A stretch of DNA of 16,000 bases, from positions 2,858,017-2,874,016 of the forward strand of contig NZ_CP194516.1 in the NCBI RefSeq assembly GCF_050931845.1, given 5' to 3'. This stretch comes from Poriferisphaera sp. WC338 (GTDB lineage: Bacteria > Planctomycetota > Phycisphaerae > Phycisphaerales > Phycisphaeraceae). The first letter of the stretch is position 1, and each line of letters opens with the position of its first letter. The notes below the pieces were generated by a model. It was not told the origin of the DNA. It worked only from the letters and a program-made list of their open reading frames with translations, and did no database searches. Below are positions 1-15,401 of this stretch, one piece after another. Made by a program: the position numbers and the translations under genes.

Positions 1-318
1 GCATTGTACGGGGTTGTTGGTGGGTCATTACCGGTGCTGTTCACGGGATCTGCAACCATTCATGGGTATCCGGGTGAGGGAAACCTGCTACCACTGTTAA
101 AGAAAGAATTGATCGAAGGCAAAACACAAAAAGAAGAGCAAACAGATGATGTCCCGCGGGAAGATCAATTGGATACCGCAGCTTTTTACCAGTATGGCCG
201 TGAGACATCGCATCAAAATATCACGACCAATTCCATTACAGGCTGTGATGGCTGCCCACGCGAACAAGTCGCAACAGAAACACCGCCTTCAAATCATTTA
301 CTACCCAACGGGTCATGA
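1..318 (+). CDS. hypothetical protein, 3' end only (gene starts upstream of the window)
   Basis: Frame 1 is open from the window edge to TGA at 316-318 (105 sense codons). No competing ORF of 60 aa or more lies on the opposite strand. No domain recognised, and the tail is acidic and low-complexity. Its stop overlaps the stop of the convergent ArsC-like gene (TCATGA, 313-318), which slightly lowers confidence. Confidence 0.4.
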   Translation, partial: ALYGVVGGSLPVLFTGSATIHGYPGEGNLLPLLKKELIEGKTQKEEQTDDVPREDQLDTAAFYQYGRETSHQNITTNSITGCDGCPREQVATETPPSNHLLPNGS

Positions 319-669
319 TCCCCATACCGCTTTCATCACATCTTCTTTGTAACCCACAGTGTACTTTTTGCCATTGGTAATGATGGGGCGTTTGCAGAGT
401 TTGCCATTTTGCGTAAGCAGCTTTAACGCTTCGGCTTCCGAAAGGTTTGGGAGTTTATCTTTCATATTGAGTTCGCGGTATTGAACGCCGGATTTATTGA
501 AGAGATCTTTGAGTTGATAGTCGCCAGCTTTGAGAATGGCTTTGAGCAAAGCCTGCGGTGGAGGTTGTTCGGTAATATCGATAAAAGTATGGTTCAGACC
601 GTGTTGGTCGAGATATTTTTTTGCGTTACGGCAAGTGCTGCATTTGTTGTAGCCATAGAGCGTGAGCAT
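313..669 (-). CDS. ArsC/Spx/MgsR-family thioredoxin-fold protein with N-terminal CxxC
   Basis: 118 aa. MLTLYGYNKCSTCRNAKKYL (beta-strand then CxxC) and the C-terminal KRPIITNGKKYTVGYKEDV match the ArsC/Spx/YffB family layout (compare Spx LRRPIIIDEKRLQVGYNEDE). GAGG Shine-Dalgarno lies 5 nt upstream of the ATG on the minus strand. Sits 41 nt downstream of the TPR gene on the same strand. Confidence 0.85.
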   Translation of the reverse strand: MLTLYGYNKCSTCRNAKKYLDQHGLNHTFIDITEQPPPQALLKAILKAGDYQLKDLFNKSGVQYRELNMKDKLPNLSEAEALKLLTQNGKLCKRPIITNGKKYTVGYKEDVMKAVWGS

Positions 670-710: not shown

Positions 711-3491
711 TCAGGATTGTTCGTGCTTACGTTCTAGCTCAATGAATTGCGTTTCAAACTTTAGGCCACCGAGCTTGGAATCACGAAGACGGAGCTGCCG
801 AATATGCAGCGGGATATCATCGGTTTTATAATTGAGCTTATCACTGATTTGCAGCTGGCGAAGCCATGCATGCCAATAGTGCGTCGGGTATGGAGGCTCT
901 GGGATACTGGTAATGATACGTGCGTAATGCTTCGCGGCAGCTCGGAGAGAACCATCTGTGTTTTGATTGAATTGTAATTCAGCAAGTGTCTGGATGAGGT
1001 CAAGATTGTCGGGGAAGGAAGATTCAAGGGCTTGAAGATCGGCGGCTGCTTGATCGTAGTTGCCGAGAAGTTGTTGAGCTTTGGCGCGAATGATTGCACA
1101 TGAAAGCATGTATGATGAGGAAAGACGGTTCTCTTTGGCGTAATCAATGAGTACGTCTGCAATTTGCACGGCAGCTGTTGCACGATGACGCAACGCGGTC
1201 GGAATCGATTTGGCGATGGCTTGCTCCGCAATGTCATCCATTTCACGCCCAAACTGGAGCAAAAGCTTATCTAAAACAGGGGCGGCTCGCTGCGGATCAT
1301 TTTTCATATAATCTTGAGCCACGCGAATAGCTTGATCGTGTTGCGCCGAAGCAATCAAAGCAGTCGAACGGATTTGAAAAGCATTAGGTAGAAGGTCATC
1401 AAGGTCGATGAAATCAGATTCAAAGTTGCCGAGTAACTTGATAGCATAGCTGTACTCTTCAGACCGCAAAGCAACTGAGGCGCGAACAATCGTCGCAGCA
1501 GCAAGCGCATAACGAACAGCCTTGCGGCGAAAAGAATCAAGGTTGTTTTTCTCAAGCTCCCGTGCAGCTTCCCGCTTCACACGATCTGCACGACGGTCGA
1601 TGTCGGCACGGATGCGAAGATATTTTGCATTGCCGATTGTGTCGTCTGCAATTTCCGTATCCAGGCAGAATAGTGCTTCACGTTGAGCATCAAAGTATTG
1701 CGGATGATCAAACGGCACACGGTCATATTGTTTAATTGCTTCATCGTACTGGCCGGCAGGCTGAAGAACGTGATAAGCATAAAAAACACGTTGATTGTCA
1801 GCTGCTTCTGAGATCGGGAAGAAATTAAACAGAACTTCTGTGGTTTGGATAAACTGCTCACGAATGCCGGGGAGTGCAGGATTTTCTTCAAAAAGCTGCT
1901 GTAATTGTGCGATCGAGAAATTGATCGCACGAGAAGCGTCGCCATGATCAGGATACTGTTGAGCGAGGCTGGTAAGCTGTTTAGAAACCTCAAGTAGATG
2001 CTTGGGAGACGGCGGCTTGGATTGATAAAAAGCAACCGTTTTGTTGTAGAGCGCATGAGCGCGAATGTCTTCAGGAATAGTGGGACTGGTGAGCGATTCA
2101 GCAAGCATGATCACACGTTGAAGCTGTTGCTTTGTTTCCGCATCCGTTGATGAATCATCCGGAGTTTGCACTTTTTGAAGAGCAAAATCTGTCATCATCA
2201 AACGAACACGCGGCGGAAGCTTATCAATCGCGTCCTGCTTAGCAAGCAAAGTGTCCCAGCGAAGAGCGATATAGTAACGCACCTGCTCTTTCTGAGCTTC
2301 GGAAAGCTGATCGTCCTCGAGGAGCTTGAAATAAGGTGAAAAAATATCTGCAGATGGATCGACAGCAAGCACACGGTAGTGCATGTCGGTGAGCATGATG
2401 CGGAAAGTGAGATTAGATTTAGCAAGCGGATGTTGCTTGAGTTGATCCAAGAGTGTGATTGCAGCAGCGAACTCGCCGGACTCAATCATGATGCGAGCTT
2501 GAGTGAGATTGGCGGTAAGATTGAGCAAGTCAGAATGACGGGCGCTGAGCACGGGGTTAAGCAGTTTGATGGCGGCGGTGTTATTACCCATTTGCAAAAG
2601 AGCGCGGGAAGCAAGAACCATAGATGCAAAACGGATGCCGGCTTCATCGCCACGGTCAGTGATAAAACGTTCTGTGTTTTGAAGTACAAGGTTGAGCAGG
2701 CGCATACGTTCGTTATCAGGCTGCATTTTGCGGCCGAGCAGCTTGTATTCAGTCGGCGCAGTGTAGTAGGATTCGGTGCGAGGGATCGCGGTGACATATA
2801 AAGCGGCGAGTGCCTGGAAGAAAGGGGTGCGTTTATGATCGTATTCGTCGAAGAGACGCTGGATGAGGCCGGAGCGTTGTAGCTGCGGCGCGTTAGCAGC
2901 GCGAGGAAGAATGGTTTGAAGTTCGAAGAGACGCTGCTTGGCACGGGTGGTAAGTTGAAGCGCTTCGATGGCTGCAACTTGGAAAGCTTGAGATTGTTGT
3001 GGTGTGGGTTGCCCAAATGTATAAGCCTCAGCAGCAAATTGATGAAGGACTTGCAATTGCTCGATAAGTAGAAGCTCAGCAAAGTCCGTCTGCCAAATCG
3101 GACATCGCGGGTTGTCGGTGAATTGATTGATGATGGCGTGGTATTGCTGAACCAGTGCAGCGAATTGATCACGTGCCTGGGCTTGAAGTTTTACAGCGGC
3201 AGGATCATTGGTTTTGGCTGCAGTAATAGCGGCTTCAGTGAGTTGTTTGTACTGAAGGCGGTGTTCGATCAATTTACGTTCAGCACGGATAGCAGAACGA
3301 TCTTCTGGAAATTGATCGGGGGATGTGAGGCGAATAGCGAGATCATGATCCCCTTGAGAAACGACGTAGTCGGCAATAGTTTGTGCCGCAAAATTCTGAT
3401 TGCATACCAAAAATACAACGCAAAAAACGGCGGACATCAAGAATGTGATGCCGTAGGTTGAGAGACTTCGTTTTGACCATTTGATCATCAT
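711..3491 (-). CDS. membrane-anchored TPR-like all-helical repeat protein (926 aa)
   Basis: Uninterrupted 926-codon ORF. N-terminal hydrophobic anchor or signal ITFLMSAVFCVVFLVCNQNFAAQ. The remainder is Ala/Leu/Gln-rich helical repeat sequence with TPR-like units (e.g. AKAQQLLGNYDQAAADLQALESSFPDNLDLIQTLAELQF). The start ATG overlaps the upstream ExbD stop (ATGA, 3488-3491). The TPR call is a compositional and motif impression, not a profile hit. Confidence 0.8.
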   Translation of the reverse strand: MMIKWSKRSLSTYGITFLMSAVFCVVFLVCNQNFAAQTIADYVVSQGDHDLAIRLTSPDQFPEDRSAIRAERKLIEHRLQYKQLTEAAITAAKTNDPAAVKLQAQARDQFAALVQQYHAIINQFTDNPRCPIWQTDFAELLLIEQLQVLHQFAAEAYTFGQPTPQQSQAFQVAAIEALQLTTRAKQRLFELQTILPRAANAPQLQRSGLIQRLFDEYDHKRTPFFQALAALYVTAIPRTESYYTAPTEYKLLGRKMQPDNERMRLLNLVLQNTERFITDRGDEAGIRFASMVLASRALLQMGNNTAAIKLLNPVLSARHSDLLNLTANLTQARIMIESGEFAAAITLLDQLKQHPLAKSNLTFRIMLTDMHYRVLAVDPSADIFSPYFKLLEDDQLSEAQKEQVRYYIALRWDTLLAKQDAIDKLPPRVRLMMTDFALQKVQTPDDSSTDAETKQQLQRVIMLAESLTSPTIPEDIRAHALYNKTVAFYQSKPPSPKHLLEVSKQLTSLAQQYPDHGDASRAINFSIAQLQQLFEENPALPGIREQFIQTTEVLFNFFPISEAADNQRVFYAYHVLQPAGQYDEAIKQYDRVPFDHPQYFDAQREALFCLDTEIADDTIGNAKYLRIRADIDRRADRVKREAARELEKNNLDSFRRKAVRYALAAATIVRASVALRSEEYSYAIKLLGNFESDFIDLDDLLPNAFQIRSTALIASAQHDQAIRVAQDYMKNDPQRAAPVLDKLLLQFGREMDDIAEQAIAKSIPTALRHRATAAVQIADVLIDYAKENRLSSSYMLSCAIIRAKAQQLLGNYDQAAADLQALESSFPDNLDLIQTLAELQFNQNTDGSLRAAAKHYARIITSIPEPPYPTHYWHAWLRQLQISDKLNYKTDDIPLHIRQLRLRDSKLGGLKFETQFIELERKHEQS

Positions 3492-4003
3492 GAGTTTACT
3501 TTGGCAAAGGCGATGTTTTCATAGCCAGCGGCCATAGCGGCGTTAAAGGCGTTCACGACGTGTTGCCAGCGGACTTGTTGTTGTGGTTTGATGAGGATGG
3601 GGTTGGTGGGGCGATAGACACCATTACGTTTTTGTGCAGGATCGTATTGAAGGTCAATAAGCATGTCACGAAGTTGACTGAAGGATGCGGTGGTGGGCAT
3701 GCCTTGAACCTCAATGCGAACGTTGTGGTAGCCGACGGTTTGAAGGGTAATGACGATAGGCTGCTCTGGGATTTGAAGCGCATCAGTAGCTTGATCGCCA
3801 CCGGTGGGAAGCTCGGCAGTCAGCGCTCCCTCACCAACCGCAAAGGAAGCGGTGACCATGAAGTAGATAAGCAGCTGGAAGATGACATCAATGAGCGGCG
3901 TAATTTGCAGTTGCATCTGCGCAGGGGGAACAATACGACGCTTACGTGAAGATTGATGCTTCACGGGCTGACTGAGTGAGGATGTTTGCGTTTGCTGGGT
4001 CAT
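3488..4003 (-). CDS. exbD: ExbD/TolR-family protein (paralog 2)
   Basis: 171 aa. Hallmark single TM with QITPLIDVIFQLLIYFMV, including the conserved TM Asp (D39, nt 3887-3889). Periplasmic C-terminal alpha/beta region ends AGYENIAFA. No clear SD, so the start at 4003 is the longest ORF and could be slightly further downstream. Confidence 0.88.
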   Translation of the reverse strand: MTQQTQTSSLSQPVKHQSSRKRRIVPPAQMQLQITPLIDVIFQLLIYFMVTASFAVGEGALTAELPTGGDQATDALQIPEQPIVITLQTVGYHNVRIEVQGMPTTASFSQLRDMLIDLQYDPAQKRNGVYRPTNPILIKPQQQVRWQHVVNAFNAAMAAGYENIAFAKVNS

Positions 4004-4032
4004 GAATGATCTTGATGCGTGTTCTTGTTGGT

Positions 4033-4527
4033 TTAGGGAGTGCCTTGATCCGCGGGGAGATAGGCGACAAGATTCACCGTACTAATGCCGGCGGCAGTGA
4101 TGGCGTTCATAATGGGCTGAACTTCATCGAAATAGATCGCAGCATCGGCACGGAGCATGACTGGGGCCTTAGGAAATTGTTCGGCGAGTGACTTGACCGC
4201 TTCAGCGATCTCCTGCAATTCGGTAGGCTCGAATTTTTGGAATGGCCCGACCTGAACAAAACGCACATTCCCTTCTAGCTCCAGCGGTTTAAAACGATCG
4301 CGATCGCTCGCTTGTACAGGAGCAACACTAATCACGATACGGTCGAGTTCGGCAAGCTGATGCGTCTGTGGGTCTTCGAGTTCGGGCACAAGCATCTTGA
4401 CAGTTTGCTTGGAGGCCATGGTATTGACGAGCATGAAGAAGATCACAAGCAGGAACACGATATCGATCAGCGGCGTGAGATTCATCCGCGGGGTCGCTGG
4501 TCCTCGTTTATGGATTCGTGATTTCAT
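4033..4527 (-). CDS. exbD: ExbD/TolR-family protein (paralog 1)
   Basis: 164 aa. MNLTPLIDIVFLLVIFFML is the canonical ExbD/TolR N-terminal TM motif with the conserved Asp (D22, nt 4462-4464). The C-terminal VMLRADAAIYFDEVQPIMNAITAAGISTVNLV matches the family periplasmic domain pattern. Confidence 0.9.
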   Translation of the reverse strand: MKSRIHKRGPATPRMNLTPLIDIVFLLVIFFMLVNTMASKQTVKMLVPELEDPQTHQLAELDRIVISVAPVQASDRDRFKPLELEGNVRFVQVGPFQKFEPTELQEIAEAVKSLAEQFPKAPVMLRADAAIYFDEVQPIMNAITAAGISTVNLVAYLPADQGTP

Positions 4528-4566
4528 CCGTTCCTGTTTCGTATGACTGGGCGGGCTTGGGTGTGA

Positions 4567-5526
4567 TTATTTTTTAGTGGTGTTGCCAAAGAGGTCGGCG
4601 TCGCCATTGTTTGGATTTGACTTTGCCGTGTTTTGCTCAGGTTCGATTTCCGCGGCAACTTCCGGTTCATCTTCCGCAACAACAACTGAGGATGCTGCGG
4701 CGGCTTGAGGAGCAACCGCAGAAGGTTGCGATGCTACTGGTGTGGGGCGTTGTACGGTTTGCGGAGTGTTTGCCTGCGCAGCGGCCTGACGGGCAGCTTG
4801 AATTTGTTGTGGGGTTGGTTTGAAAGGCGCAATGATCGATTCAACGATCAAAACACCCTCGGAAGCAAGGGAATCGATCTTATTCCTAATCAGCGCATAG
4901 GAGGCCAGTGCAGGAACTGCAACGACCAACCCCCAGAAGGTGGTGATCAGCGCGGTGGATATACCGGCAGCGAGTTGTGAAGGTTCTGCGTTACCACCTT
5001 CAGCGACGAGTTGCTGGAACGCGCGAATCATACCGTAAACCGTGCCGAATAAACCGATCATGGGAGCGATATTGCCAAGGACATTAAGGTATTCGATGGG
5101 TCGGAGAATTTTGACAGTTTCATTGTCGGCAGATTCTTCGATCGCCCGCTCCATAGCCATAAAACCGTTGGGGGCTTCATGGAGCGTGGCGCTGATGATG
5201 TGTCCGAGGTAAGATTTGTCTTTGTTGGCGTAATCGATGGCTTGACGAAATTGCCGTTGCATGAGAAGCATGTTGACTTTTTTCTTGGTCCCTTCGGGGA
5301 GCATACGGGTACGGCGGTATTGGGTCATGAGGTGGATGGAGAAACCGATGGAAAAGGCGGACATGGCGAGGAGAAGCCAGATGATAAGCAGGCCGAGGAA
5401 ATCGTCTGACCAGAGGAACATGCTGAACCAAGAACCTGTGTCTGCCGCGTCGGCTTGTGCGAAGAGCACAGGTGTGCCAAGCATACAAAGCGCGCTGCCG
5501 AGAAGGATGGAAAATGTTTGACGCAT
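4567..5526 (-). CDS. exbB: MotA/TolQ/ExbB proton-channel family protein with signal peptide and long C-terminal Pro/Ala/Gln-rich tail
   Basis: 319 aa. LGNIAPMIGLFGTVYGMIRAF (TM2) and GISTALITTFWGLVVAVPALASY (TM3) are the family core. N-terminal signal-like sequence ILLGSALCMLGTPVLFAQA. Residues about 236-319 form a low-complexity P/A/Q/E tail. Confidence 0.92.
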   Translation of the reverse strand: MRQTFSILLGSALCMLGTPVLFAQADAADTGSWFSMFLWSDDFLGLLIIWLLLAMSAFSIGFSIHLMTQYRRTRMLPEGTKKKVNMLLMQRQFRQAIDYANKDKSYLGHIISATLHEAPNGFMAMERAIEESADNETVKILRPIEYLNVLGNIAPMIGLFGTVYGMIRAFQQLVAEGGNAEPSQLAAGISTALITTFWGLVVAVPALASYALIRNKIDSLASEGVLIVESIIAPFKPTPQQIQAARQAAAQANTPQTVQRPTPVASQPSAVAPQAAAASSVVVAEDEPEVAAEIEPEQNTAKSNPNNGDADLFGNTTKK

Positions 5527-5603
5527 GGCATGGTTCCTATCGTGCGGATTGATCGTGCGAACAGAGACACAATCAGACGCATTGTTTATCGGCTTATGCC
5601 GCT

Positions 5604-6656
5604 TTATTGATACAGTTCATCCTCGGTGACAAAACGGTAGACGCCACCAGTGCCTTCTGCAATAAGGGGCATGGTCCCGGGACGGCCAAGTTCTTCAAGA
5701 GGATCATGGTATAAAAACTGGATGGTGTTGATCTTGGTATTGCTGTGGTTCGCTCTGGCAATCTCGCGGAGTAGATGCTTCTGGTTGACTTCATATTGGC
5801 CTTGGCCGGTGATGTTGTCGGAGAGGAGGTAGATGAGGCCGGGCTTGTATTTGAGAGCTTGTGTGAGGGCTTTGATGGGGTTGGTCTGCTTGCTGGGAAC
5901 GACATTGTGCTTGCGCGGGTCGATCCAGTCGATGACGGCTTGCTTTTGCGAGGCAGTAGCTTGCTTGAGTCCTTTAGGTGGAACTTCAAAAACTTCGTTG
6001 CCTTGAAAGAAGATGACAGTGAAGGTTTGTTTGTCGGAAAGATTGCGGATGGTTTTTTGAAGTTCAAGCAAAACGTATTTCATGGTATCGATAAGCGATC
6101 CGGAGGCGTCAACAACAAAGATGATCTTACGAGCATTACCACCTGAGCCGAAGAAGTTCGTTTTGAACTCGGCACCGCTGGCCATATCAGCCGCAAAGGG
6201 ATTAATCTTGGACGCACCACCTGCCAGACCGATCATGGGAACTTCAGTGACGGGCTTGACGTTGAGAGTGGTTTGCGGGGTGTCGATCTGTGTGATCGAA
6301 CGGCGAGCAGTATTAGAAGTTTGTTCGAGCGGTTTGAAATCGGTTTGCGTCAGCGGCGAACCGGGCGTATCAGAGAGACGGATGTTAGGAACCACGATCT
6401 GCTGATCCTGGATGACGGTCACGGTGGTCCAGACAGCAAAGATCGCGATGAGGATAAGAATGAGATGAATGCCGCCGGAGATGAGCCACGGAGCATAAGC
6501 TGCAAACCCTTCCGGCTTATCGTCTTCAAGCTGAAGATCATCGCCCTGCTCCGCAACCTGCACAGCCAAATCAGCTAATGCCAAATGGGCCGCCTCCCCA
6601 GTTTGAGGAGGATCGGTAGACGATAGCGTGCTGGGGTTTGAACTTTCCTGACTCAT
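5604..6656 (-). CDS. single-pass membrane-anchored von Willebrand factor type A (vWA) domain protein with TonB/TolA-like SxxxH anchor
   Basis: 350 aa. One TM (aa 56-76, PWLISGGIHLILILIAIFAVW), then a linker of about 100 aa, then a vWA fold. The vWA part shows KIIFVVDASGSL (MIDAS DxSxS, nt 6096-6110), KQTNPIKALTQAL (MIDAS Thr) and LIYLLSDNITG (MIDAS Asp). First gene of the minus-strand operon. Confidence 0.85.
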   Translation of the reverse strand: MSQESSNPSTLSSTDPPQTGEAAHLALADLAVQVAEQGDDLQLEDDKPEGFAAYAPWLISGGIHLILILIAIFAVWTTVTVIQDQQIVVPNIRLSDTPGSPLTQTDFKPLEQTSNTARRSITQIDTPQTTLNVKPVTEVPMIGLAGGASKINPFAADMASGAEFKTNFFGSGGNARKIIFVVDASGSLIDTMKYVLLELQKTIRNLSDKQTFTVIFFQGNEVFEVPPKGLKQATASQKQAVIDWIDPRKHNVVPSKQTNPIKALTQALKYKPGLIYLLSDNITGQGQYEVNQKHLLREIARANHSNTKINTIQFLYHDPLEELGRPGTMPLIAEGTGGVYRFVTEDELYQ

Positions 6657-6815: not shown

Positions 6816-6887
6816 GCGCCGTTTGTCGCTTGCTAAACCGAGCCTGGGCAAGTCAATCTATCTTCTATATCAACAGGAGTTTTGAAT

Positions 6888-7970
6888 ATGTGTGCGAGAA
6901 AAGCCAAGGCATTGCGAGCAGCTTTCATCGGCGCAGGCGGAATCGCCAAACCACACCTCGATGCACTTGCAAGGATTGATGAGGTTGAAGTGGTAGCGTT
7001 GGCGGATGTAAATACCAAAGTGATGGAAGAACACGCCGAGGCGTATGCGATTGATTCTTCCGGCTTGTATACGGATTACAAAAAGATGCTGGCAAAAGTG
7101 AAGCCAGAGGTGGTGTTTGTCTGCACCCCAAACGGCTTACACGCACCAGCCTCAATCGCGGCAAGCAAAGCCGGCGCACACGTCATGGTTGAAAAACCTA
7201 TGGCAATGAATGCCCGTGAAGCGAAAAGGATGATCGACGCCGCTAAGAAAGCGCGAAAGAAGATCATCTGCGGTTTGCAGTTTCGATTTGACCCCAAGAC
7301 ACAGTTTTTGAAAAAGCAGGTGGATGCGGGCCAGCTTGGCAACATCATGTTTGGTCGTGTGCAAGCAATGCGACGGCGCGGCATCCCGAACTGGGGTGTA
7401 TTCGGCCAAAAGGAATTACAAGGTGGCGGCCCGATGATCGACATCGGCGTACATGCACTTGAGATGTGTCATTATGTGATGGGTTCACCCAAACCCATAG
7501 CCGCAAGTGGCATGACTTGGACTTACCTCGGCGATAAGCCCAGCGACCAGATCGAATGCCTTTGGCCAAACTGGGATCATAAAAACTATGATGTCGAAGA
7601 TCTTGCTGTCGGCCATATCCGTTTTGACAATGGCGCGGTGATTCATATTGAATCGAGCTTCATCGCACATATAGAGCCGACGTCGATCATGGATTTTCAG
7701 CTTATGGGCACCAAGGGCGGCTGCAAATGGGATTCGTCAACCGTGTCGACCGATCAACACGGCTACATGATTGATTACAAGCCGACGTATAACACGCCGG
7801 GCGATTTTAATGAGAACTTCTATCGCAAGAATCGCAACTTCATTGACCATCTGCTTTATGGCGCTAAGCCGATCGCACCGACAGAGGACGGACTCATGGT
7901 GCAGCAGATGCTTGACGCGATTTATCAATCCGCAGACAAAGGTGGCAAAGAAGTCCGTATCTCACCTTAA
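6888..7970 (+). CDS. Gfo/Idh/MocA-family NAD(P)-dependent oxidoreductase
   Basis: N-terminal Rossmann motif LRAAFIGAGGIAKPHLDAL, then VFVCTPNGLHAPASIAASKAGAHVMVEKPMA (the family EKP motif). The C-terminal alpha/beta domain is typical of the family. I prefer the ATG at 6888 over the track's TTG at 6882 because AGGAG (6875-6879) lies 8 nt upstream of 6888 and only 2 nt from 6882. Confidence 0.9.
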   Translation: MCARKAKALRAAFIGAGGIAKPHLDALARIDEVEVVALADVNTKVMEEHAEAYAIDSSGLYTDYKKMLAKVKPEVVFVCTPNGLHAPASIAASKAGAHVMVEKPMAMNAREAKRMIDAAKKARKKIICGLQFRFDPKTQFLKKQVDAGQLGNIMFGRVQAMRRRGIPNWGVFGQKELQGGGPMIDIGVHALEMCHYVMGSPKPIAASGMTWTYLGDKPSDQIECLWPNWDHKNYDVEDLAVGHIRFDNGAVIHIESSFIAHIEPTSIMDFQLMGTKGGCKWDSSTVSTDQHGYMIDYKPTYNTPGDFNENFYRKNRNFIDHLLYGAKPIAPTEDGLMVQQMLDAIYQSADKGGKEVRISP

Positions 7971-8024: not shown

Positions 8025-8090
8025 CATGCACTAGATACATGAATTAAAAAGGCTTGTATGGCGTTATTGCCCATAGAAGCACGATCGCCC

Positions 8091-8120
8091 TTGACGGCCT
8101 GGGGCAACAGACGTGATACT
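8091..8120 (+). promoter_or_regulatory. putative promoter for the cytochrome b562-like gene
   Basis: TTGACG (8091-8096), 18-nt spacer, GATACT (8115-8120), about 37 nt upstream of the ATG at 8157. By-eye match only. Confidence 0.3.
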
Positions 8121-8156
8121 GTCCTGCATTCACAGCAACAATTACGGAGAAACACC

Positions 8157-8618
8157 ATGCCTAAAGAACAGAATTTCCGCGCTCGTTTTGGTTTGATGAT
8201 CTTTGTCACCCTTGGCTCTTTGGCCTTGCTTGCGCCGCTTAGTTTCGCAGACAAAGACAGCGAGCATGATGAAGTCAACCTGCATGAACTTATGGAAGAT
8301 ATGGAGGATGATTTCAAAGCACTTCGTAAGCAAATTAATAATGCAGATAAAAATGATTCGAGTGTGGAGCTTCTGACGGACCTTCAAGAAGATGCCGTGG
8401 AAGCCAAAGGGTTCATGCCAGACAACGTGCTCGATGCATCTGCGTCAGAAAAGGACGCATTGCAAACTGAATATCTAATTGCGATGAATAAGCTCATCAT
8501 AGAACTCGCACAAACTGAGATTGCCCTGCTTGAAAACGACAACAAGAAGGCGGTCAAAGCACTGGTGAAAGTGCGTGATGTACAAAGAAGTGGCCACAAA
8601 AAATTCAAACACGACTGA
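8157..8618 (+). CDS. secreted cytochrome b562-family four-helix-bundle protein
   Basis: Start chosen at ATG 8157, with GGAGA at 8146-8150. Signal peptide MIFVTLGSLALLAPLSFA. The mature part parallels E. coli cytochrome b562 as I recall it: LHELMEDMEDDFKALRK versus LEDNMETLNDNLKVIEK (axial Met region), and C-terminal RSGHKKFKHD versus RNAYHKKYR (axial His). Confidence 0.7.
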   Translation: MPKEQNFRARFGLMIFVTLGSLALLAPLSFADKDSEHDEVNLHELMEDMEDDFKALRKQINNADKNDSSVELLTDLQEDAVEAKGFMPDNVLDASASEKDALQTEYLIAMNKLIIELAQTEIALLENDNKKAVKALVKVRDVQRSGHKKFKHD

Positions 8619-8640
8619 TTGATATCGATGAATGACTCCG

Positions 8641-8675
8641 GGCTTGCGTGTGAAGACGTGCAAGCCTGATTTTTA
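8641..8675 (+). terminator. hairpin plus T-tract: probable intrinsic terminator or attenuator between the two cytochrome genes
   Basis: 11-bp stem GGCTTGCGTGT (8641-8651) / ACGTGCAAGCC (8656-8666) with two G-U pairs, GAAG tetraloop, then TGATTTTTA (8667-8675). Sits in the 73-nt gap before the ATG at 8692. Confidence 0.5.
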
Positions 8676-8691
8676 TATGACAGGACTCATT

Positions 8692-9675
8692 ATGGCTCGC
8701 CACTTGTTAGTTCGATTGCTGCTCGCATTTGGGATGATGCTCGCTGCGTTACCGTTTGCAATGGCGGAAACAAAAGAACAAACAGTGCCTCCAGCAAATA
8801 CAAGTGGCTCTGCAGGCGAAGCATTGCGGGATATGCATTTAGCATCACAGGTTCATGCGATCTTTAAAGAAAAGTGTTACGACTGCCACGGGGCACACCT
8901 AATCAAGCCGGATGGCGGATTTGGCTATACGCTTGATTTTGAGAAGCTACGGAGTACACCGGACTATATCGTGCCGGGTGATGTGAACAAGTCGTATATT
9001 TACGATCTTGTAGATTTTGGGGACATGCCGCCACTGGATAGTGACGTAGCACAGCTAACCAATCACGAGAAAGAACTTGTGAAGTGGTGGATCGAAGCAG
9101 GTGCACCAGCAATGAAAGTCGTAGACGAACCAATAAAAATCGCATCCATTGCTGCAGAAAAACCAATTGACACTTCTGATAAACCGAAACCAAAATTGGC
9201 GCAAGCAACCGTGACCACAACACCATCTCAGCCAGGCAAACGGTGGCTTAACTTCTTTGGACAATTCCATCCACCCACAACACATTTTCCAATCGCGCTC
9301 TTAATGATGGCCGCATTCGCCGAGTTGCTTTTTGTACTTTCTCGACGAGATGAGCTTAAAAGTGTGGTTCGCTTTTGCATATGGTTTGGCGTAATCGGTG
9401 CCATCTTTTCCGCTAGTCTGGGTTGGGCTGAAGGCGCATATCATCTTATGAAACCCTCTGAATTATGGGCTTTTAATTTGCACCGATTGCTCGGCACAAT
9501 GGTTGCTATCTGGGGTTTGCTCATGCTAATCTACCTTGAAGCGCGTGTTCGTCGGAGTGCCTGTGGCTGCCGAACAGGGTTGCGCGTATTGCTTTTTGTC
9601 GGTGCAATACTGGTATCAATCACCGGATTTCTCGGCGGGCTATTAACCTTCGGTGTTGATCATTACACATTCTGA
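8692..9675 (+). CDS. c-type cytochrome domain (Planctomycete cytochrome c / PSCyt1-like) fused to a 4-TM DUF2231-like membrane domain
   Basis: Start chosen at ATG 8692 (MARHLLVRLLLAFGMMLAALPFAMA signal peptide; AGGA 6 nt upstream). Heme-binding CYDCH at 8875-8889, within FKEKCYDCHG...PDGGFGYTLD...IVPGDVNKSYIYDLV...MPP...EKELVKWWIEAGA, the pattern I associate with PSCyt1. Pro/Lys/Thr linker. The C-terminal FHPPTTHFPIALLMMAAF plus three further TM helices resembles DUF2231. Confidence 0.8.
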   Translation: MARHLLVRLLLAFGMMLAALPFAMAETKEQTVPPANTSGSAGEALRDMHLASQVHAIFKEKCYDCHGAHLIKPDGGFGYTLDFEKLRSTPDYIVPGDVNKSYIYDLVDFGDMPPLDSDVAQLTNHEKELVKWWIEAGAPAMKVVDEPIKIASIAAEKPIDTSDKPKPKLAQATVTTTPSQPGKRWLNFFGQFHPPTTHFPIALLMMAAFAELLFVLSRRDELKSVVRFCIWFGVIGAIFSASLGWAEGAYHLMKPSELWAFNLHRLLGTMVAIWGLLMLIYLEARVRRSACGCRTGLRVLLFVGAILVSITGFLGGLLTFGVDHYTF

Positions 9676-9900
9676 CCACCTTACATTTCCCAACAATACT
9701 GCCAATACACCCGTACTACATCAGACATAAAGCTCTGGTTCTGCACACCAAATCCGCATGTCTACGGCATACATGTCTTTTGAATCTATTCATGAATAAT
9801 ACTTGTTCATGTAGCAAAGAGCGTTTAACATCACATCCGTCGAAACGCGATAACCATCTTTGAATATAACGTTCTGTACTTTCTCTTGGAGCAATATCTC

Positions 9901-10296
9901 ATGGCCGAACAGGTTGAGGGCCGCGCGCACGAGGAGATCGATGCGCCGGACATTTCTAACACACAAACATCCTCCAAAACAAAGCTGGATTACAACAACC
10001 CCAAGGTTGTGACATCCATACAAAAATACTGGGAAGCAAACATCCGTGTGATGGGTATCTTACTCCTGATCTGGGCGGCGGTCGGATTAGGCTGCGGCAT
10101 TCTTTTTGCAGACTGGCTAAATCAGTTCAACTTCCCCGGCACAGGCGCGCCGCTCGGCTTCTGGTTTGCTCAACAAGGATCCATCATTGTCTTTGTGTTC
10201 CTGATCTTAGTTTATGCGATCATCATGAATCGCTTGGATGCTTATCATCAACGAGAGCTTAAAAACCTCCATGAACAAGATGGAGGTGATGCATGA
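9901..10296 (+). CDS. DUF4212 protein (putative solute:sodium symporter small subunit)
   Basis: YWEANIRVMGILLLIWAAVGLGCGILFADWLN...GAPLGFWFAQQGSIIVFVFLILVYAIIMNRLD matches the two-TM DUF4212 pattern found upstream of VC_2705-type symporters. ATG 9901 is preferred, with GGAG at 9888-9891. Its stop overlaps the symporter start (ATGA at 10293-10296). Confidence 0.85.
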   Translation: MAEQVEGRAHEEIDAPDISNTQTSSKTKLDYNNPKVVTSIQKYWEANIRVMGILLLIWAAVGLGCGILFADWLNQFNFPGTGAPLGFWFAQQGSIIVFVFLILVYAIIMNRLDAYHQRELKNLHEQDGGDA

Positions 10297-12326
10297 GCGT
10301 ATTAACTTGGACCTACATCTTCGTCGGATTAACGTTTGGCTTGTACCTCTTCATTGCCTGGCGAGCACGAGTCAAAGACACCAAAGGCTTCTATGTCGCA
10401 GGCCGCGGTGTCCCCGCTTCAGCAAACGGCATGGCCACTGCCGCTGACTGGATGTCGGCGGCTTCATTCATCGGCATGGCAGGACTCATCTCCACCATGG
10501 GATATGCAGGCGGGCAATACCTCATGGGTTGGACCGGCGGGTACGTGCTACTCGCACTCTTACTCGCTCCGTACCTCCGCAAGTTCGGACACTTCACCGT
10601 ACCAGACTTTATCGGTGATCGCTTCTCTTCCAACTTCGCACGCATCGTTGCCGTCATTTGCGCGATCTTTATCTCGTTCACCTATGTCGCCGGTCAAATG
10701 CGCGGCGTCGGCATCGTCTTCTCACGCTTCCTCGAAGTCCCCATTACCTACGGCGTCATCATCGGCATGATCATCGTCTTCATCTACGCCACGCTCGGCG
10801 GCATGAAAGGCATCACTTGGACACAGGTCGCGCAATACTGGATTCTCATCACCGCGTTCCTCATCCCCGCCATCGCGATCTCCATCAAACTCACCGGCAC
10901 GCCCATCCCGCAGCTTGGTCTTGGCGCTCAGATCACCGACACGTCCACACACCTGCTCGACAAACTGAACAACATCGGAAATGATCTAGGGTTTGGATCA
11001 TATACCGCCGCTTCCGGTGCATCCGGCGGGGGCTTTAACAAACTATTGAACATGTTCTGCGTCACCCTCGCGCTTATGGTTGGCACCGCAGGCTTACCTC
11101 ACGTCATCGTGCGATTTTATACGGTGAAGAATGTGAAAGCTGCACGCTGGTCTGCATTCTGGGCGCTGCTCTTTATCGCAGGTTTGTATCTCACTGCACC
11201 AGCAACGGCTGCCTTTGCACGCTACTACATGCTGACAACTTTGAACGGCCGTACCTACGCAATGAATATCGGCGCCGCTGGTATTCAAACCAGTGACGGA
11301 CAAACCATCAGCATGACCAAAGATACGGAGGGGCTTAACCGTGTGATGATCAGCGGCGTGGACGCATCGGCGGCCCTTCCCTACAACCGCTTCAACACTG
11401 CCGAAGGTAAACAGTACTACATCATTCAGCGCGAATCCGGTGACATCATCTCTGAACTGCCACACTGGTATTTCAACTGGGAAAATACCGGTCTGATTGC
11501 ATGGTTTGATGGTAACAATGATGGCCGCGTGTCCTATACTGGACGAGATGACAACGAAGTTTTCCGTGCTGGCGGTGCACTGGCTGGCGCAACTTTCACA
11601 CAATTAAAAGTTGAACATCAGAAATGGCTTGATACCGGTGGTACACAAGGTGCCGATGCACGTGCCACATTGACGAAGGAAGAACTGTCCGGACCAGATA
11701 AGGACATCATCGTCCTAGCCACACCTGAAATGGCCGAGCTTTCCAACTGGATCATCGCATTCATTGCGGCAGGTGGCTTGGCGGCAGCTTTGTCGACTGC
11801 ATCGGGTTTGTTGCTGGTGATCTCATCGTCAGTCGCACACGACCTCTACTTCAATATCTTGAATCCAAAGGCATCGGAAGCATCACGACTCTTGGTCGGA
11901 CGTGTGGTGATTGGATTCGCGGTGGTGGTGGCTGGATTCTTTGGGATCTACCCACCGGGCTTTGTGAGTGAAGTGGTGGCGTTTGCATTTGGCCTCGCTG
12001 CAGCGTCATTCTTCCCGGCAATCGTGCTAGGCATTTTCTCAAAACGTGTCAGCACCGGGCCAGCGGTCATCGGTATGCTGGTCGGGATTATTTTCACCGC
12101 AACATACATCATCGGCGGCGTCTATATGGACATGCCCAACTGGTGCTTCGGGATCAGCACACGCGGCATCGGTGCCGTCGGTATGGTCTTGAACTTCATA
12201 GTAACGTTGGGCTTAACCCCCTTCTTCCCACCACCGAACGAAAATGTCCAAGCCATGGTTGCCGCGATTCGTGAGCCAGAATTCGAACCGCCAGCACCGC
12301 AGATCGAAGAAGCCGTGGTGCATTAG
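10293..12326 (+). CDS. sodium:solute symporter (SSF) family transporter, VC_2705/ActP-like large subunit, with a large hydrophilic insertion
   Basis: 677 aa with multiple TM helices. SSF-type motifs GFYVAGRGVPASANGMATAADWMSAASFIGMAG and GTAGLPHVIVRFYT. GGAGG lies 5 nt upstream. Paired with a DUF4212 gene. Residues about 312-482 are hydrophilic. Confidence 0.92.
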   Translation: MSVLTWTYIFVGLTFGLYLFIAWRARVKDTKGFYVAGRGVPASANGMATAADWMSAASFIGMAGLISTMGYAGGQYLMGWTGGYVLLALLLAPYLRKFGHFTVPDFIGDRFSSNFARIVAVICAIFISFTYVAGQMRGVGIVFSRFLEVPITYGVIIGMIIVFIYATLGGMKGITWTQVAQYWILITAFLIPAIAISIKLTGTPIPQLGLGAQITDTSTHLLDKLNNIGNDLGFGSYTAASGASGGGFNKLLNMFCVTLALMVGTAGLPHVIVRFYTVKNVKAARWSAFWALLFIAGLYLTAPATAAFARYYMLTTLNGRTYAMNIGAAGIQTSDGQTISMTKDTEGLNRVMISGVDASAALPYNRFNTAEGKQYYIIQRESGDIISELPHWYFNWENTGLIAWFDGNNDGRVSYTGRDDNEVFRAGGALAGATFTQLKVEHQKWLDTGGTQGADARATLTKEELSGPDKDIIVLATPEMAELSNWIIAFIAAGGLAAALSTASGLLLVISSSVAHDLYFNILNPKASEASRLLVGRVVIGFAVVVAGFFGIYPPGFVSEVVAFAFGLAAASFFPAIVLGIFSKRVSTGPAVIGMLVGIIFTATYIIGGVYMDMPNWCFGISTRGIGAVGMVLNFIVTLGLTPFFPPPNENVQAMVAAIREPEFEPPAPQIEEAVVH

Positions 12327-12401: not shown

Positions 12402-14240
12402 TCAATCTTCTTTTTCGTCCTGATCAAGATGATCGAGTTTCATGGGTTGAGGTGTATCCATAACCACGACTGTTTGCATGGCCATGTCACCAACACGCTG
12501 ACGGTTCATAGAAATCAACGGAAAGAGAAGCAAAATCGGCACGAGCAAATCGAGTAGCTTAGAAAGACCACGCCCGAGAAGTTGACCTACGGCGGGCTTC
12601 TCACCTTTTATGGTGACGACGCGAATGCCAGCGATTTTTTTGCCAACGGTGCGGCCAGTGGCGATTTCACTGACTGTGGTGTAAAGAATGAAGGCGCCTA
12701 TGATGATCAGCGCAGGGACCATTTTTTCCCATGACAAACCTGCCTCCGCGCCTGGCCAACGACTCCATAATTCAGTAAAGCTAAGATTGAATGAGAACTT
12801 CACGATAAGAACGATCGGAAGGATGTCGATCATGCCAGCATAAAGCCGCTTGGAAAAATCACAGAGCACCATCTGCTTAGGAAGCGCAAGTTTGTTCTGT
12901 GCAGGATCTCGCATCATAAAGATCATGAGGAGAATCATGGCTGCCATCAGTACACCAAAGGTAATCATGTACTGCGCAAAAAGTTCAAACGCTTGCGGCT
13001 CATAGGCAGTAAGTGTGGTGGGTTTACCAATCTCTTTACCTTGGAGATCGAGTTCCGCAAGCGTGAGTGAGACATTGTGCTCAGCGCTGCTGGGTAAAGC
13101 GAAAAGGCTAGGCGTACTGGTGGGTTTTTGGGGCTTATGTTCAGGATTGGCTGCAATGACGCCAAGATGACCGTTGTATGGAACCGCAGCCCATGAGGCA
13201 TCGCTTTTAAGCGGCAAATCTAGTTTCCCGATTTTGAGTTCCTGGTTGTTACGGAGAATATCAAAACCAACAGAAAGGGTGCTGCCGGGTTGCTGCACCG
13301 CCAATGCCAGCTGCTTATTCACTTCGAGCATGGCGAAACCGCGAGCGTTAGGCCAATTGATATTGGTGCGTTGCCAACCTTCCCCATCGTGTTGATAGAT
13401 GCGGATGTTACTGAGATCCGTCACTCCCTGCACCGCCAACACAGGAAAAGCGGCCTGTTCACTGCCAGCGACCATCCATGCCTTGCCAACATGCGGCCAG
13501 TCCAATGGCAAATCAATGAAAGTCCATCGCGCCCGATCATGCACCATCAAGCGGTCAACCGGTTTGCCATCAGTGTTCGTTGATGTTGTGGGGTTCGCAG
13601 ATAATGCGGCTTCTGCGTTAGATTGGGGCTTGGCTTCATCCTGTGTTTGTGGCTCGGATACTGGCTGATCCTCAAGGATGGTGGTGATAGCATTTGAATC
13701 TGCACCATCTTCGATCACTTGATTAGCTTCACGAGTTTTTGCTTCAGCTGCTTTGGCGTCTGCTTCGTTTGCAAATTGTACAAGTGCGAAAGCATTTGTT
13801 TCATTAACCGCCAAACTACGAAGCTCACAATTCACGGTGATGGGCGATTGTGCGGACGAGGTGTACTGCCAGAAATCCTGTGCCACGGATTTGACCGGGC
13901 TGAGTGTTTGAAAGGCAATGCCGTTGTCAATTTTGTAGGCCAACCAGAGTTGTTTGTCACGTACAGCAAGCCCGCCGGGTGCGAGGATTCCTGAGAAAGA
14001 ATGTGCATAGGTAATCTGGCCGGCTTCATCTTTCACATTGCGATGATATACACTGACCTGCGGTACTTTGGCGTCCTGATCATGTGGCTGCACAAACCAG
14101 AGATCTTCACCGTCACTGACTGCAGTCAGTGATTGCGCCTCAGCATGAGCGGAGGCAAAAACACTCACCCATGCCGTACCCACCAACATCAGCATGAGCC
14201 AAAGACCCCGATAACACCTTCTTGCGTTTGTGATCATCAT
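12402..14240 (-). CDS. RDD-family membrane protein with signal peptide and a roughly 400-aa N-terminal extracytoplasmic region
   Basis: 612 aa. Signal peptide LWLMLMLVGTAWVSVFASAHA. Beta-rich region split by an acidic, low-complexity linker. TM helix YMITFGVLMAAMILLMIFMM. RDD-like C-terminus (KRLYAGMIDILPIVLIV ... TGRTVGKKIAGIRVV ... NRQRVGDMAMQTVVV). Confidence 0.85.
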   Translation of the reverse strand: MMITNARRCYRGLWLMLMLVGTAWVSVFASAHAEAQSLTAVSDGEDLWFVQPHDQDAKVPQVSVYHRNVKDEAGQITYAHSFSGILAPGGLAVRDKQLWLAYKIDNGIAFQTLSPVKSVAQDFWQYTSSAQSPITVNCELRSLAVNETNAFALVQFANEADAKAAEAKTREANQVIEDGADSNAITTILEDQPVSEPQTQDEAKPQSNAEAALSANPTTSTNTDGKPVDRLMVHDRARWTFIDLPLDWPHVGKAWMVAGSEQAAFPVLAVQGVTDLSNIRIYQHDGEGWQRTNINWPNARGFAMLEVNKQLALAVQQPGSTLSVGFDILRNNQELKIGKLDLPLKSDASWAAVPYNGHLGVIAANPEHKPQKPTSTPSLFALPSSAEHNVSLTLAELDLQGKEIGKPTTLTAYEPQAFELFAQYMITFGVLMAAMILLMIFMMRDPAQNKLALPKQMVLCDFSKRLYAGMIDILPIVLIVKFSFNLSFTELWSRWPGAEAGLSWEKMVPALIIIGAFILYTTVSEIATGRTVGKKIAGIRVVTIKGEKPAVGQLLGRGLSKLLDLLVPILLLFPLISMNRQRVGDMAMQTVVVMDTPQPMKLDHLDQDEKED

Positions 14241-14390
14241 GACAGGTTACGCAAAAGCTCCGCTGGGGTAAACTGGCTTAAGACATCGGAACATGTTGTT
14301 GCGTCTGGTTGCACTGTTTCTCTCTCGACCGCGACGGGGGCAGGCCGTGAGAATATCTCTCTGGGATACATCGGGCAATCGGAACGCTAT

Positions 14391-14419
14391 CTGACAAGGG
14401 GGCAGCCACCGCTTACAAT
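14391..14419 (+). promoter_or_regulatory. near-consensus sigma70-type promoter positioned to give a leaderless cdsA mRNA
   Basis: CTGACA (14391-14396), exactly 17-nt spacer, TACAAT (14414-14419). The expected transcription start 7-8 nt downstream coincides with the A of the cdsA ATG (14427). There is no purine-rich SD in the 7 nt between. Confidence 0.45.
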
Positions 14420-14426
14420 CATAGCC

Positions 14427-15401
14427 ATGCTAAAGTACCGCCTCATCTTTGGTCCGATCATGATTTTAGGATTGATCGCACTGATTTATTTCGATAACAA
14501 GCTCGACGACATCAATCTGCAAGGCACGTTTTTGCAGCCGATGTTTCTGGGGCGGACATATCTGCCAGCAGGATTGATCATGTTGGGGCTTTTTCTGGTG
14601 CTGATCTCACTGGCGGTGCGTGAGATCATCCACATGTTTCGGGCTAAGGGATTAGCACCGGACGGGCTGATGATCTGGCTTTCTGGGATCATTGGCTGCT
14701 CGCTCATCTATATCATCCCGTTCCAAACCGATTCACAGACCACGATCGCGATCTATGCTTCGTTCATGGTTCTCTTGTTCATGTTCACATTGATCCGACT
14801 AGCGATCCGGAAGATGACGACCGGAGCGTTGATTGCGGGGTCGCTGACGATGTTTGGGTTTTTGTATCTGGGCGTTTTGCCCGGGTTTTACCTTGCGATT
14901 CGGCGATGGCATTCGGCATGGGTCATTGCGGCCATCATCCTGATCATCAAATCGTGTGATATTGGCGCATACTTCACAGGATGTTCGATTGGGAAACACA
15001 AAATGATTCCGTGGCTGTCACCAAAAAAATCATGGGAAGGTTTGGTCGGTGGCATCTTGTTTTCAGGATTGGTCGCGGTGGGGCTGACGGCACTGGGCAA
15101 TTATCTAGGCGTCACGGGCAAATGGATGGGTGGCGGGGCGGATGGGGGTGACCGATTTTTCCAAGCACATCATTATCCGCTGTGGTTTGCGTTTGTGGTG
15201 GGGGTGCTGTTCGGGCTGCTTGGTCAGGCGGGCGACCTTACGGCAAGCATGTTCAAACGGGATGCAGCCATCAAGGATTCGGGGTCGTTTGTGCCGGGAT
15301 TTGGCGGGCTGATTGATATCTTGGATTCGCCGGTCTTGGTAGCCCCATTTGCGTATTGGGTACTGATCATCGCTGAGCAACTGTCACACGTTGGGGGATA
15401 G
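14427..15401 (+). CDS. cdsA: phosphatidate cytidylyltransferase (CDP-diglyceride synthase)
   Basis: 324 aa. The N-terminus MLKYRLI is identical to E. coli CdsA as I recall it. SCDIGAYFTGCSIGKHKMIPWLSPKKSWEG and SMFKRDAAIKDSGSFVPGFGGLIDILDS match the CdsA core and signature region. The track's upstream extension to 14133 is rejected. Confidence 0.9.
   Translation: MLKYRLIFGPIMILGLIALIYFDNKLDDINLQGTFLQPMFLGRTYLPAGLIMLGLFLVLISLAVREIIHMFRAKGLAPDGLMIWLSGIIGCSLIYIIPFQTDSQTTIAIYASFMVLLFMFTLIRLAIRKMTTGALIAGSLTMFGFLYLGVLPGFYLAIRRWHSAWVIAAIILIIKSCDIGAYFTGCSIGKHKMIPWLSPKKSWEGLVGGILFSGLVAVGLTALGNYLGVTGKWMGGGADGGDRFFQAHHYPLWFAFVVGVLFGLLGQAGDLTASMFKRDAAIKDSGSFVPGFGGLIDILDSPVLVAPFAYWVLIIAEQLSHVGG

Follow-up and report, generated by a model that had tools for sequence, protein, structure and literature searches.

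A predicted vWA-headed force transducer encoded with an ExbBD/TolQR-type motor in Poriferisphaera sp. WC338

The stretch of DNA analysed here (the window, 16,000 nucleotides (nt) in length) comes from Poriferisphaera sp. WC338, a deep-sea bacterium of the Phycisphaerae (Planctomycetota) that has been cultured, is strictly laminarin-dependent and has a spherical cell with a single polar flagellum. Our subject is a cluster of minus-strand genes encoding a vWA protein, one ExbB/TolQ-like and two ExbD/TolR-like subunits and a large TPR protein. The vWA protein matched 'vWA domain-containing protein [Poriferisphaera sp. WC338]' with 100% identity. Six open reading frames (ORFs), counting an ArsC/Spx gene at the far end, follow one another with intergenic gaps of 77, 39, 29, -4 and 41 nt, and direct reading of the letters showed that the stop of the second ExbD gene and the start of the TPR gene overlap as ATGA. 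The coordinates and this overlap were as given in the initial annotation of the stretch, whose assignments of the ExbB/TolQ, the two ExbD/TolR, the TPR-like and the ArsC/Spx products were borne out by Pfam and NCBIfam matches. The features, with the evidence on which each was placed (lengths in amino acids, aa; structure models by AlphaFold2, AF2), are the following.

5604-6656, minus strand: vWA-headed transducer candidate, 350 aa (100% identity match, AF2 model, Foldseek)
6417-6506, minus strand: its transmembrane (TM) helix, residues 51-80 (homologue conservation, AF2)
6354-6401, minus strand: its linker motif IVVPNIRLSDTPGSPL, residues 86-101 (conservation in the family alignment A1)
5607-6134, minus strand: its vWA domain, residues 175-350 (AF2, Foldseek, metal-site residues)
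4567-5526, minus strand: ExbB/TolQ-like subunit, 319 aa (Pfam MotA_ExbB, 3e-28)
4033-4527, minus strand: ExbD/TolR-like paralogue 1, 164 aa (Pfam ExbD, 3e-20)
3488-4003, minus strand: ExbD/TolR-like paralogue 2, 171 aa (Pfam ExbD, 7.5e-18)
711-3491, minus strand: TPR protein, 926 aa (Pfam TPR_14 and TPR_19)
313-669, minus strand: ArsC, Spx/MgsR family (Pfam ArsC; NCBIfam score above cut-off)

The product of 5604-6656 had been proposed to be a vWA protein with a metal-ion-dependent adhesion site (MIDAS). Pfam returned VWA_3 only, and below threshold (E 1.7e-4, with 22 bits where the cut-off is 27), and the full-length family profile (A1) found no match at E ≤ 0.01 among PDB sequences, so the assignment rests on the fold together with the sub-threshold Pfam match. 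Block means of the predicted local distance difference test (pLDDT) were mostly above 90 in the head (residues 175-350) of the AF2 model, and Foldseek comparison of this head with the PDB retrieved solved vWA domains with E values of 1e-11 to 1e-7, including ITIH1, Cav alpha2delta, CMG2/ANTXR2 and integrin I domains. The MIDAS residues are D183-x-S185-x-S187, T258 and D280. In the model, strands 177-183 and 274-279 end at DxSxS and D280, respectively, the canonical strand ends for such a site. Both aspartates were present in 119/119 homologues, S187 in 118 and S185 in 113, and position 258 was S or T in 92 of the 119. Fold model and conservation agree in predicting a vWA head with an intact MIDAS site, as proposed. 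Neither Pfam nor NCBIfam placed TonB_C (PF03544) anywhere in this protein at E ≤ 0.1.

Ahead of the vWA domain, the protein has a cytoplasmic N-terminus, one TM helix and a disordered linker of ~95 residues; the AF2 model gives a confident helix at 51-80, disorder at 81-170 (pLDDT 37-58) and the alpha/beta domain at 175-350. As modelled, the vWA protein has the topology of TonB and TolA: one TM helix, a linker and a globular head. The helix bears P56-W57, S60-x3-H64, A71 and W76, and no Asp. Conservation among the 119 homologues was complete for H64 (119/119) and reached 117 for W76, 115 for A71, 114 for W57 and 112 for S60. The family comprised 555 clusters (50% identity) at E ≤ 1e-30, and the helix signature was kept in 112 of the 148 top representatives obtained as sequence. 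The reference motifs are S16-x3-H20 in E. coli TonB (PDB chain 9ddo_F) and S18-x3-H22 in TolA (9k49_H), and S60-x3-H64 is accordingly spaced; we regard it as a predicted motor-docking signature of TonB/TolA type. The linker carries a second conserved element, the post-helix motif of residues 86-101 (family consensus IIPxARLSxTPGAPL), in which P90 is invariant and S95, P98 and P101 are conserved at ≥90% in alignment A1. It starts 22 residues past the helix His, while PISVTMV of TonB and IDAVMV of TolA start 24 and 28 residues past theirs, and it is a candidate 'motor box', a strand that would pair with ExbD. Pfam gave no meaningful match for the helix-plus-linker segment. The placing of a vWA protein in the transducer position by the initial annotation therefore stands, as far as sequence analysis reaches, on the TonB topology and the conserved S-x3-H.

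The stator genes were matched by PF01618 (MotA_ExbB; 4567-5526, at 3e-28) and by PF02472 (ExbD; 4033-4527 and 3488-4003, at 3e-20 and 7.5e-18). The closest solved relatives of their products were TolQ and TolR, with TolQ chains best for the ExbB-like protein, so that the stator is nearer to TolQ/TolR than to ExbB/ExbD; in NCBIfam, its proteins fell far under the TolQ, ExbB, TolR and ExbD equivalog cut-offs (77.8 bits against 221, for example). The pore-lining pair T162 and T196 and the TM3 proline P205 of the ExbB-like protein align with TolQ T145, T178 and P187, and were kept in 72/72, 71/71 and 71/71 homologues, respectively. The N-terminus of this subunit is signal-peptide-like, and its C-terminal tail of ~95 aa is of low complexity and rich in Pro, Ala and Gln. 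The TM aspartates of the two ExbD paralogues, D22 in the first and D39 in the second, both align with TolR D23 and were conserved throughout (70/70 and 66/66 homologues). With the pore threonines and both proton-binding aspartates retained, the stator is predicted to have an intact proton path. The two paralogues are alike in the TM segment only; the pair is therefore heterologous, which fits a heterodimer.

The AF2 model of the 926-aa TPR protein is an all-helical solenoid with block-mean pLDDT mostly above 80 from residue 290 onwards, and because the homologue search gave just three proteins, the model rests on a shallow alignment. Foldseek returned generic TPR superhelices only (Ctr9, Ski3, IFT-A, TTC7); at rank 25 stood 9hmf_K, a periplasmic scaffold of the Campylobacter flagellar motor. 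The protein had been annotated as membrane-anchored, a description we would revise: most of the homologues listed bear ordinary Sec signal peptides without a lipobox, and on these grounds it is more likely secreted than anchored, most likely as a soluble periplasmic protein. The cleavage site of the WC338 protein is less clear than those of its homologues.

Synteny in relatives, one of the checks proposed with the initial annotation, was examined in one genome per species, where 79 Phycisphaerae loci were found and 77 could be evaluated. In 72/77 loci ExbB followed downstream of vWA in the same orientation, and the full vWA-ExbB-ExbD-ExbD-TPR (~900 aa) series was present in 58, with vWA proteins that were 34-65% identical across these loci. 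The vWA-ExbB arrangement is not due to chance. When neighbouring ORFs were clustered, the vWA protein was found at 82 loci, ExbB at 72, ExbD1 at 69, ExbD2 at 66 and the TPR protein at 60, in all of which it follows ExbD2. No further gene was comparably conserved except one for a secreted protein of ~380-400 aa. Judged from these counts, the vWA, ExbB, two ExbD and TPR genes form a conserved unit in Phycisphaerae. The conserved flanks are housekeeping genes (GFO/IDH/MocA oxidoreductase, aldo-keto reductase, NUDIX, rhomboid), and every vWA relative obtained, by representative search and cluster look-up, came from Phycisphaerae or Planctomycetota.

The ~380-400-aa gene was found between vWA and ExbB in 65 related loci, and its product has weak TPR matches at the C-terminus. 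Examples (locus number and coordinates) are:

L008:10930-12108: ~380-400-aa gene
L022:10924-12129: ~380-400-aa gene
L001:11038-11571: short form, 177 aa

It has no homologue in the 16-kb window, where the gap between vWA and ExbB is just 77 nt (5527-5603), and the nearest Poriferisphaera genomes are also without it. The vWA gene itself varies in number: 28 loci have two or three tandem vWA ORFs (for example L007, L013, L014, L030-L032, L060 and L072), with up to four vWA-like segments detected at L072 by tblastn, and the window holds a single copy. Orphan copies away from any ExbB (L029, L037, L040, L041 and L053; P0091 is an example) keep PW..S...H. Such orphan and multiple vWA paralogues resemble the multiple or orphan TonBs that share one motor.

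No TonB_C, TolA, TolB or Pal/OmpA family was matched among the window proteins scanned with Pfam and NCBIfam, in agreement with the initial annotation, which had seen nothing there resembling TonB_C, TolA domain III, TolB or Pal; TolA domain III, tolB and pal were likewise not found in L001 and L003 or among the conserved neighbours of the related loci. A further proposed check was for a cryptic TonB_C or TolA-like domain, and for the vWA and TPR proteins neither profile searches nor structure models gave any sign of one. No TonB-dependent receptor lies near the window cluster. Every proposed check that was run favoured the interpretation put forward with the initial annotation, which is thus supported.

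We consider that the cluster encodes an envelope machine driven by the proton-motive force, with a 5:2 stator of ExbBD/TolQR type and a vWA-headed transducer of TonB/TolA topology, and we put the probability of this reading at roughly 0.7. The vWA helix would dock on the outside of the ExbB pentamer via S60 and H64, like the TonB and TolA helices, and the post-helix motif would pair with the periplasmic domain of an ExbD1/ExbD2 heterodimer. Proton flow would turn the ExbD dimer and so pull on the linker. The MIDAS metal of the head would hold an acidic residue on a partner in the periplasm or outer membrane, where the pull would be delivered, and this grip would replace the beta-strand capture of TonB and TolA. 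The secreted TPR solenoid may be a periplasmic scaffold or adaptor, or may itself be the partner of the MIDAS head, and the conserved motifs of the disordered linker are plausible TPR ligands. We infer that force is delivered to the vWA head and that the TPR protein is its partner. As to the output, our guess, a weak one, is a housekeeping envelope function, either outer-membrane tethering or remodelling as in Tol-Pal or the gating of an outer-membrane component; we prefer this over gliding because the cluster occurs almost throughout the class, lies among housekeeping genes and includes no gene for a receptor.

Support for this reading also comes from other systems and other loci. A class of vWA force transducers has been described in silico in Planctomycetes-Verrucomicrobia-Chlamydiae (PVC) bacteria, with Tichowtungia aerotolerans as the type example (PMC12204202, Mol Biol Evol 2025), and in the AlphaFold 3 models of that paper the conserved His of such vWA proteins occupies the motor site used by TonB and TolA, which amounts to an independent published prediction. 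The Vibrio TonB2 cluster, ttpB-ttpC-exbB-exbD-tonB2-ttpD, supplies in TtpD2 (425 aa, with TPR motifs, essential for iron transport) a precedent for an essential TPR accessory in Ton clusters. The orphan vWA paralogues that keep the helix motif point the same way. Several observations weigh against a force-transducing vWA protein. Of SHLS, the helix motif of the published class, only S and H are literal, the L and S positions being A71 (115/119) and V75. The motor-box-like motif shows no strand in the AF2 monomer model. A profile of helix plus linker (A3) run against all PDB sequences gave chance matches only (E ≥ 0.8), with TonB and TolA absent; because it finds neither by sequence, the likeness to TonB and TolA is one of motif level only. 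The motor is atypical, since the position of the conserved TM3 glutamate, TolQ E173 (ExbB E176), is Thr (T191, in 66/71 homologues). No outer-membrane partner is encoded near the cluster, in the window or among the conserved neighbours, and the TonB_C negative covers the window, the TolA negative the window and related loci. Finally, the published class is itself purely computational, with no deletion phenotypes reported (PMC12204202).

Among the alternatives, the one that survives best, which we nevertheless find improbable, is that the vWA protein belongs to the same complex and transmits no force, acting as assembly factor, regulator, stator plug or TPR-recruiting receptor, and that the mechanical output goes through something else, such as the ExbD periplasmic domains or the TPR protein. 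Synteny and the helix motif speak for association without demonstrating that force is transmitted, and no outer-membrane target is encoded nearby; moreover, the second secreted TPR-like protein between vWA and ExbB in 65 loci suggests a periplasmic protein network as the core of the system. What such a role leaves hard to explain is a disordered spacer of ~95 residues, long enough to cross the periplasm and unexpected in an assembly factor, together with an invariant His at the TonB/TolA docking position and a conserved ligand-binding MIDAS site.

The same architecture could also drive surface adhesion or gliding, with the vWA head or its partner extending to the cell surface and the motor powering motility or attachment as in Myxococcus Agl-Glt. 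Agl has one TolQ-like and two TolR-like subunits as here, the vWA adhesin CglB works with Agl-Glt, and a gliding role has been raised as a possibility for the published class (PMC12204202). We think it quite unlikely: no Glt genes or outer-membrane components were found in the cluster or its conserved neighbourhood, the NCBIfam match to GltJ was insignificant (E 0.031), WC338 is a sphere with one polar flagellum, and a vWA head tethered to the inner membrane by ~95 residues is not secreted.

Stronger objections meet the proposal that this is an ordinary Ton/Tol stator with its TonB or TolA gene at another place in the genome and with vWA and TPR genes as unrelated neighbours. It draws on the Pfam-typical ExbB and ExbD proteins and on the reach of the TonB_C/TolA scans given above, and it has very little probability given the vWA-ExbB linkage in 72/77 loci despite 34-65% identity, the ATGA translational coupling to the TPR gene, the TonB-like S-x3-H in the vWA helix and stator scores as far below the NCBIfam equivalog cut-offs as 77.8 bits against 221. 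Least probable of all is a vWA/TPR membrane complex of the Bat (Bacteroides aerotolerance) kind or an anti-phage system of MotAB type resembling Zorya, since, although Bat operons pair a membrane vWA protein with TPR proteins and Zorya has MotAB-like 5:2 stators, Bat was rejected for want of any BatA-type domain (BatA_N), MoxR ATPase or DUF58 partner in the window or related loci, Zorya for want of ZorA/ZorB or any other PADLOC defence model matching any of the five proteins, and the cluster lies class-wide beside housekeeping genes, unlike a mobile defence island.

Should the vWA protein be a force transducer, a bolder extension may be considered, which we hold to be doubtful: it may serve Phycisphaerae as their principal or sole force transducer across the envelope, powering an essential outer-membrane process through its MIDAS grip. 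The argument for it is that these bacteria have no Tol-Pal and no TonB-type head linked to the motor. We know of no SusC or TonB-dependent route reported in the WC338 lineage, and in the literature on Poriferisphaera and Phycisphaerae we found no mention of TonB, ExbB or ExbD. The absence of pal from Planctomycetes is cited from Witwinowski et al. in the supplement of PMC12204202. The process served would then tentatively be division constriction or tethering, or else polysaccharide uptake (of laminarin in WC338).

To our knowledge, ExbBD/TolQR-type motors have long been thought to act solely via TonB and TolA. From a vWA-headed transducer it would follow that the same motor can be wired to a different, metal-dependent grip, and a MIDAS metal grip, if true, would give 5:2 motors a coupling chemistry not seen in them before. 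In integrin-type vWA domains, the bond between the MIDAS metal and an acidic residue strengthens under load. Such a device could explain how the outer membrane is energised in PVC bacteria without Tol-Pal. The window holds a minimal version of the system, with one vWA copy and without the ~380-400-aa accessory gene, in a strain which is cultured and has a complete genome and RNA-seq deposited as PRJNA1337914, and whose relative P. corsica is also cultured; it is therefore a convenient place to test the class.

The rest of the window was also surveyed. The ArsC/Spx gene, which the initial annotation had counted with the cluster, is a Spx/MgsR-ArsC gene (313-669, minus strand) 41 nt downstream of the TPR gene. 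It had no counterpart at any related Phycisphaerae locus and was rejected as an operon member for that reason; from the comparison of loci it probably has no relation to the cluster beside it, even should the two be co-transcribed. On the other side, a GFO/IDH/MocA oxidoreductase gene (6882-7970, plus strand) is divergent from the vWA gene and occupies the same place in at least 21 Phycisphaerae loci at 58-71% identity, a conserved position that may reflect local synteny or a functional link. Further along, 8058-9675 (plus strand) encodes two proteins, one of them cytochrome b562-like and bearing a signal or anchor sequence, the other a PSCyt1-DUF2231 fusion; PSCyt1 is a planctomycete cytochrome c domain, and the b562-like/PSCyt1 pair also adjoins the cluster in P. 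corsica (L003). At 9886-12326 (plus strand), a small DUF4212 membrane protein gene overlaps by 4 nt the gene for a 677-aa sodium:solute symporter (SSF), a pair kept in P. corsica. The gene at 12402-14240 (minus strand) encodes 612 aa, with a long extracytoplasmic region towards the N-terminus and an RDD domain at the C-terminus, and its 5' end overlaps the longest CTP_transf_1 (phosphatidate cytidylyltransferase-type) ORF (14133-15401, plus strand); the CTP_transf_1 gene itself probably starts further in than this ORF. Neither an RNA family nor a tRNA was detected when the window was scanned with Rfam and for tRNA genes, and the promoter/terminator scan gave a result no better than that for shuffled sequence.

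The cluster was compared with several known systems. The cluster order tonB-exbB-exbD1-exbD2 is known from Xanthomonas, and the window shares with TonB-ExbB-ExbD a transducer gene in first place, an ExbB with two ExbD subunits, the topology, the helix S-x3-H and the post-helix motif; it differs in having a vWA/MIDAS head instead of TonB_C, and no TonB-dependent receptor nearby. With Tol-Pal it shares a stator closest to TolQ/TolR, a TPR protein in the operon like CpoB and a housekeeping-type distribution, but there are two TolR paralogues here and the TPR protein, at 926 aa, is not CpoB-sized. The Vibrio TonB2 cluster likewise combines a Ton-type motor with an extra TPR protein from the same cluster; there, however, TonB2 is canonical, and the likeness to TtpD is one of TPR content, no homology having been found or looked for. 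In Myxococcus Agl-Glt, a parallel already drawn in the initial annotation, one TolQ-like and two TolR-like subunits are again accompanied by a vWA domain at the working end, whereas CglB is an outer-membrane lipoprotein, not tethered to the motor, and Agl couples via the TonB_C-type GltG and GltJ. A second published arrangement, the TPH-vWA class (PMC12204202), in which a vWA protein replaces TolR, with a TolR-like Asp in the helix, no SHLS and no tolR/exbD beside tolQ, was rejected for the window, whose helix has His and no Asp and whose cluster has two ExbD genes.

The closest counterpart is the vWA transducer class of PMC12204202, to which we assign the window cluster, the comparison with Tichowtungia being by published description. 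Its carriers are Proteobacteria, Planctomycetes, Verrucomicrobia, Bacteroidetes and Rhodothermaeota; its members have an SHLS-type helix, a disordered linker of ~100 residues with the motor box and a vWA head, and their genes have one tolQ-like, two heterologous tolR-like and a TPR gene as neighbours. The helix with the SHLS His, a disordered linker of similar length, the vWA fold and the tolQ/two-tolR/TPR neighbourhood are all found in the window. The linker motif of residues 86-101 lies where a motor box would be expected relative to the His, with no strand in the monomer model. The differences are that vWA comes first and the large TPR gene last here, where the paper has vWA downstream of the TPR and motor genes; that Tichowtungia has two transducers (PMC12204202) and the window a single vWA copy; and that SHLS is literal only at S and H in the window protein. 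The initial annotation had known of no characterised example of such a machine, which holds in that none has been characterised experimentally and fails in that the class had already been predicted in PMC12204202. As the hypothesis drawn from the window matches this in silico class, the window cluster counts as a further member of that class rather than as a new kind. To the published description, the present analysis adds figures for conservation across the class, the invariance of the MIDAS and motor residues, the replacement of TolQ E173 by Thr, vWA paralogues in tandem and as orphans, and a sixth core gene in most relatives, the ~380-400-aa gene not being mentioned as such in PMC12204202 unless it is that paper's 'TPR gene'.

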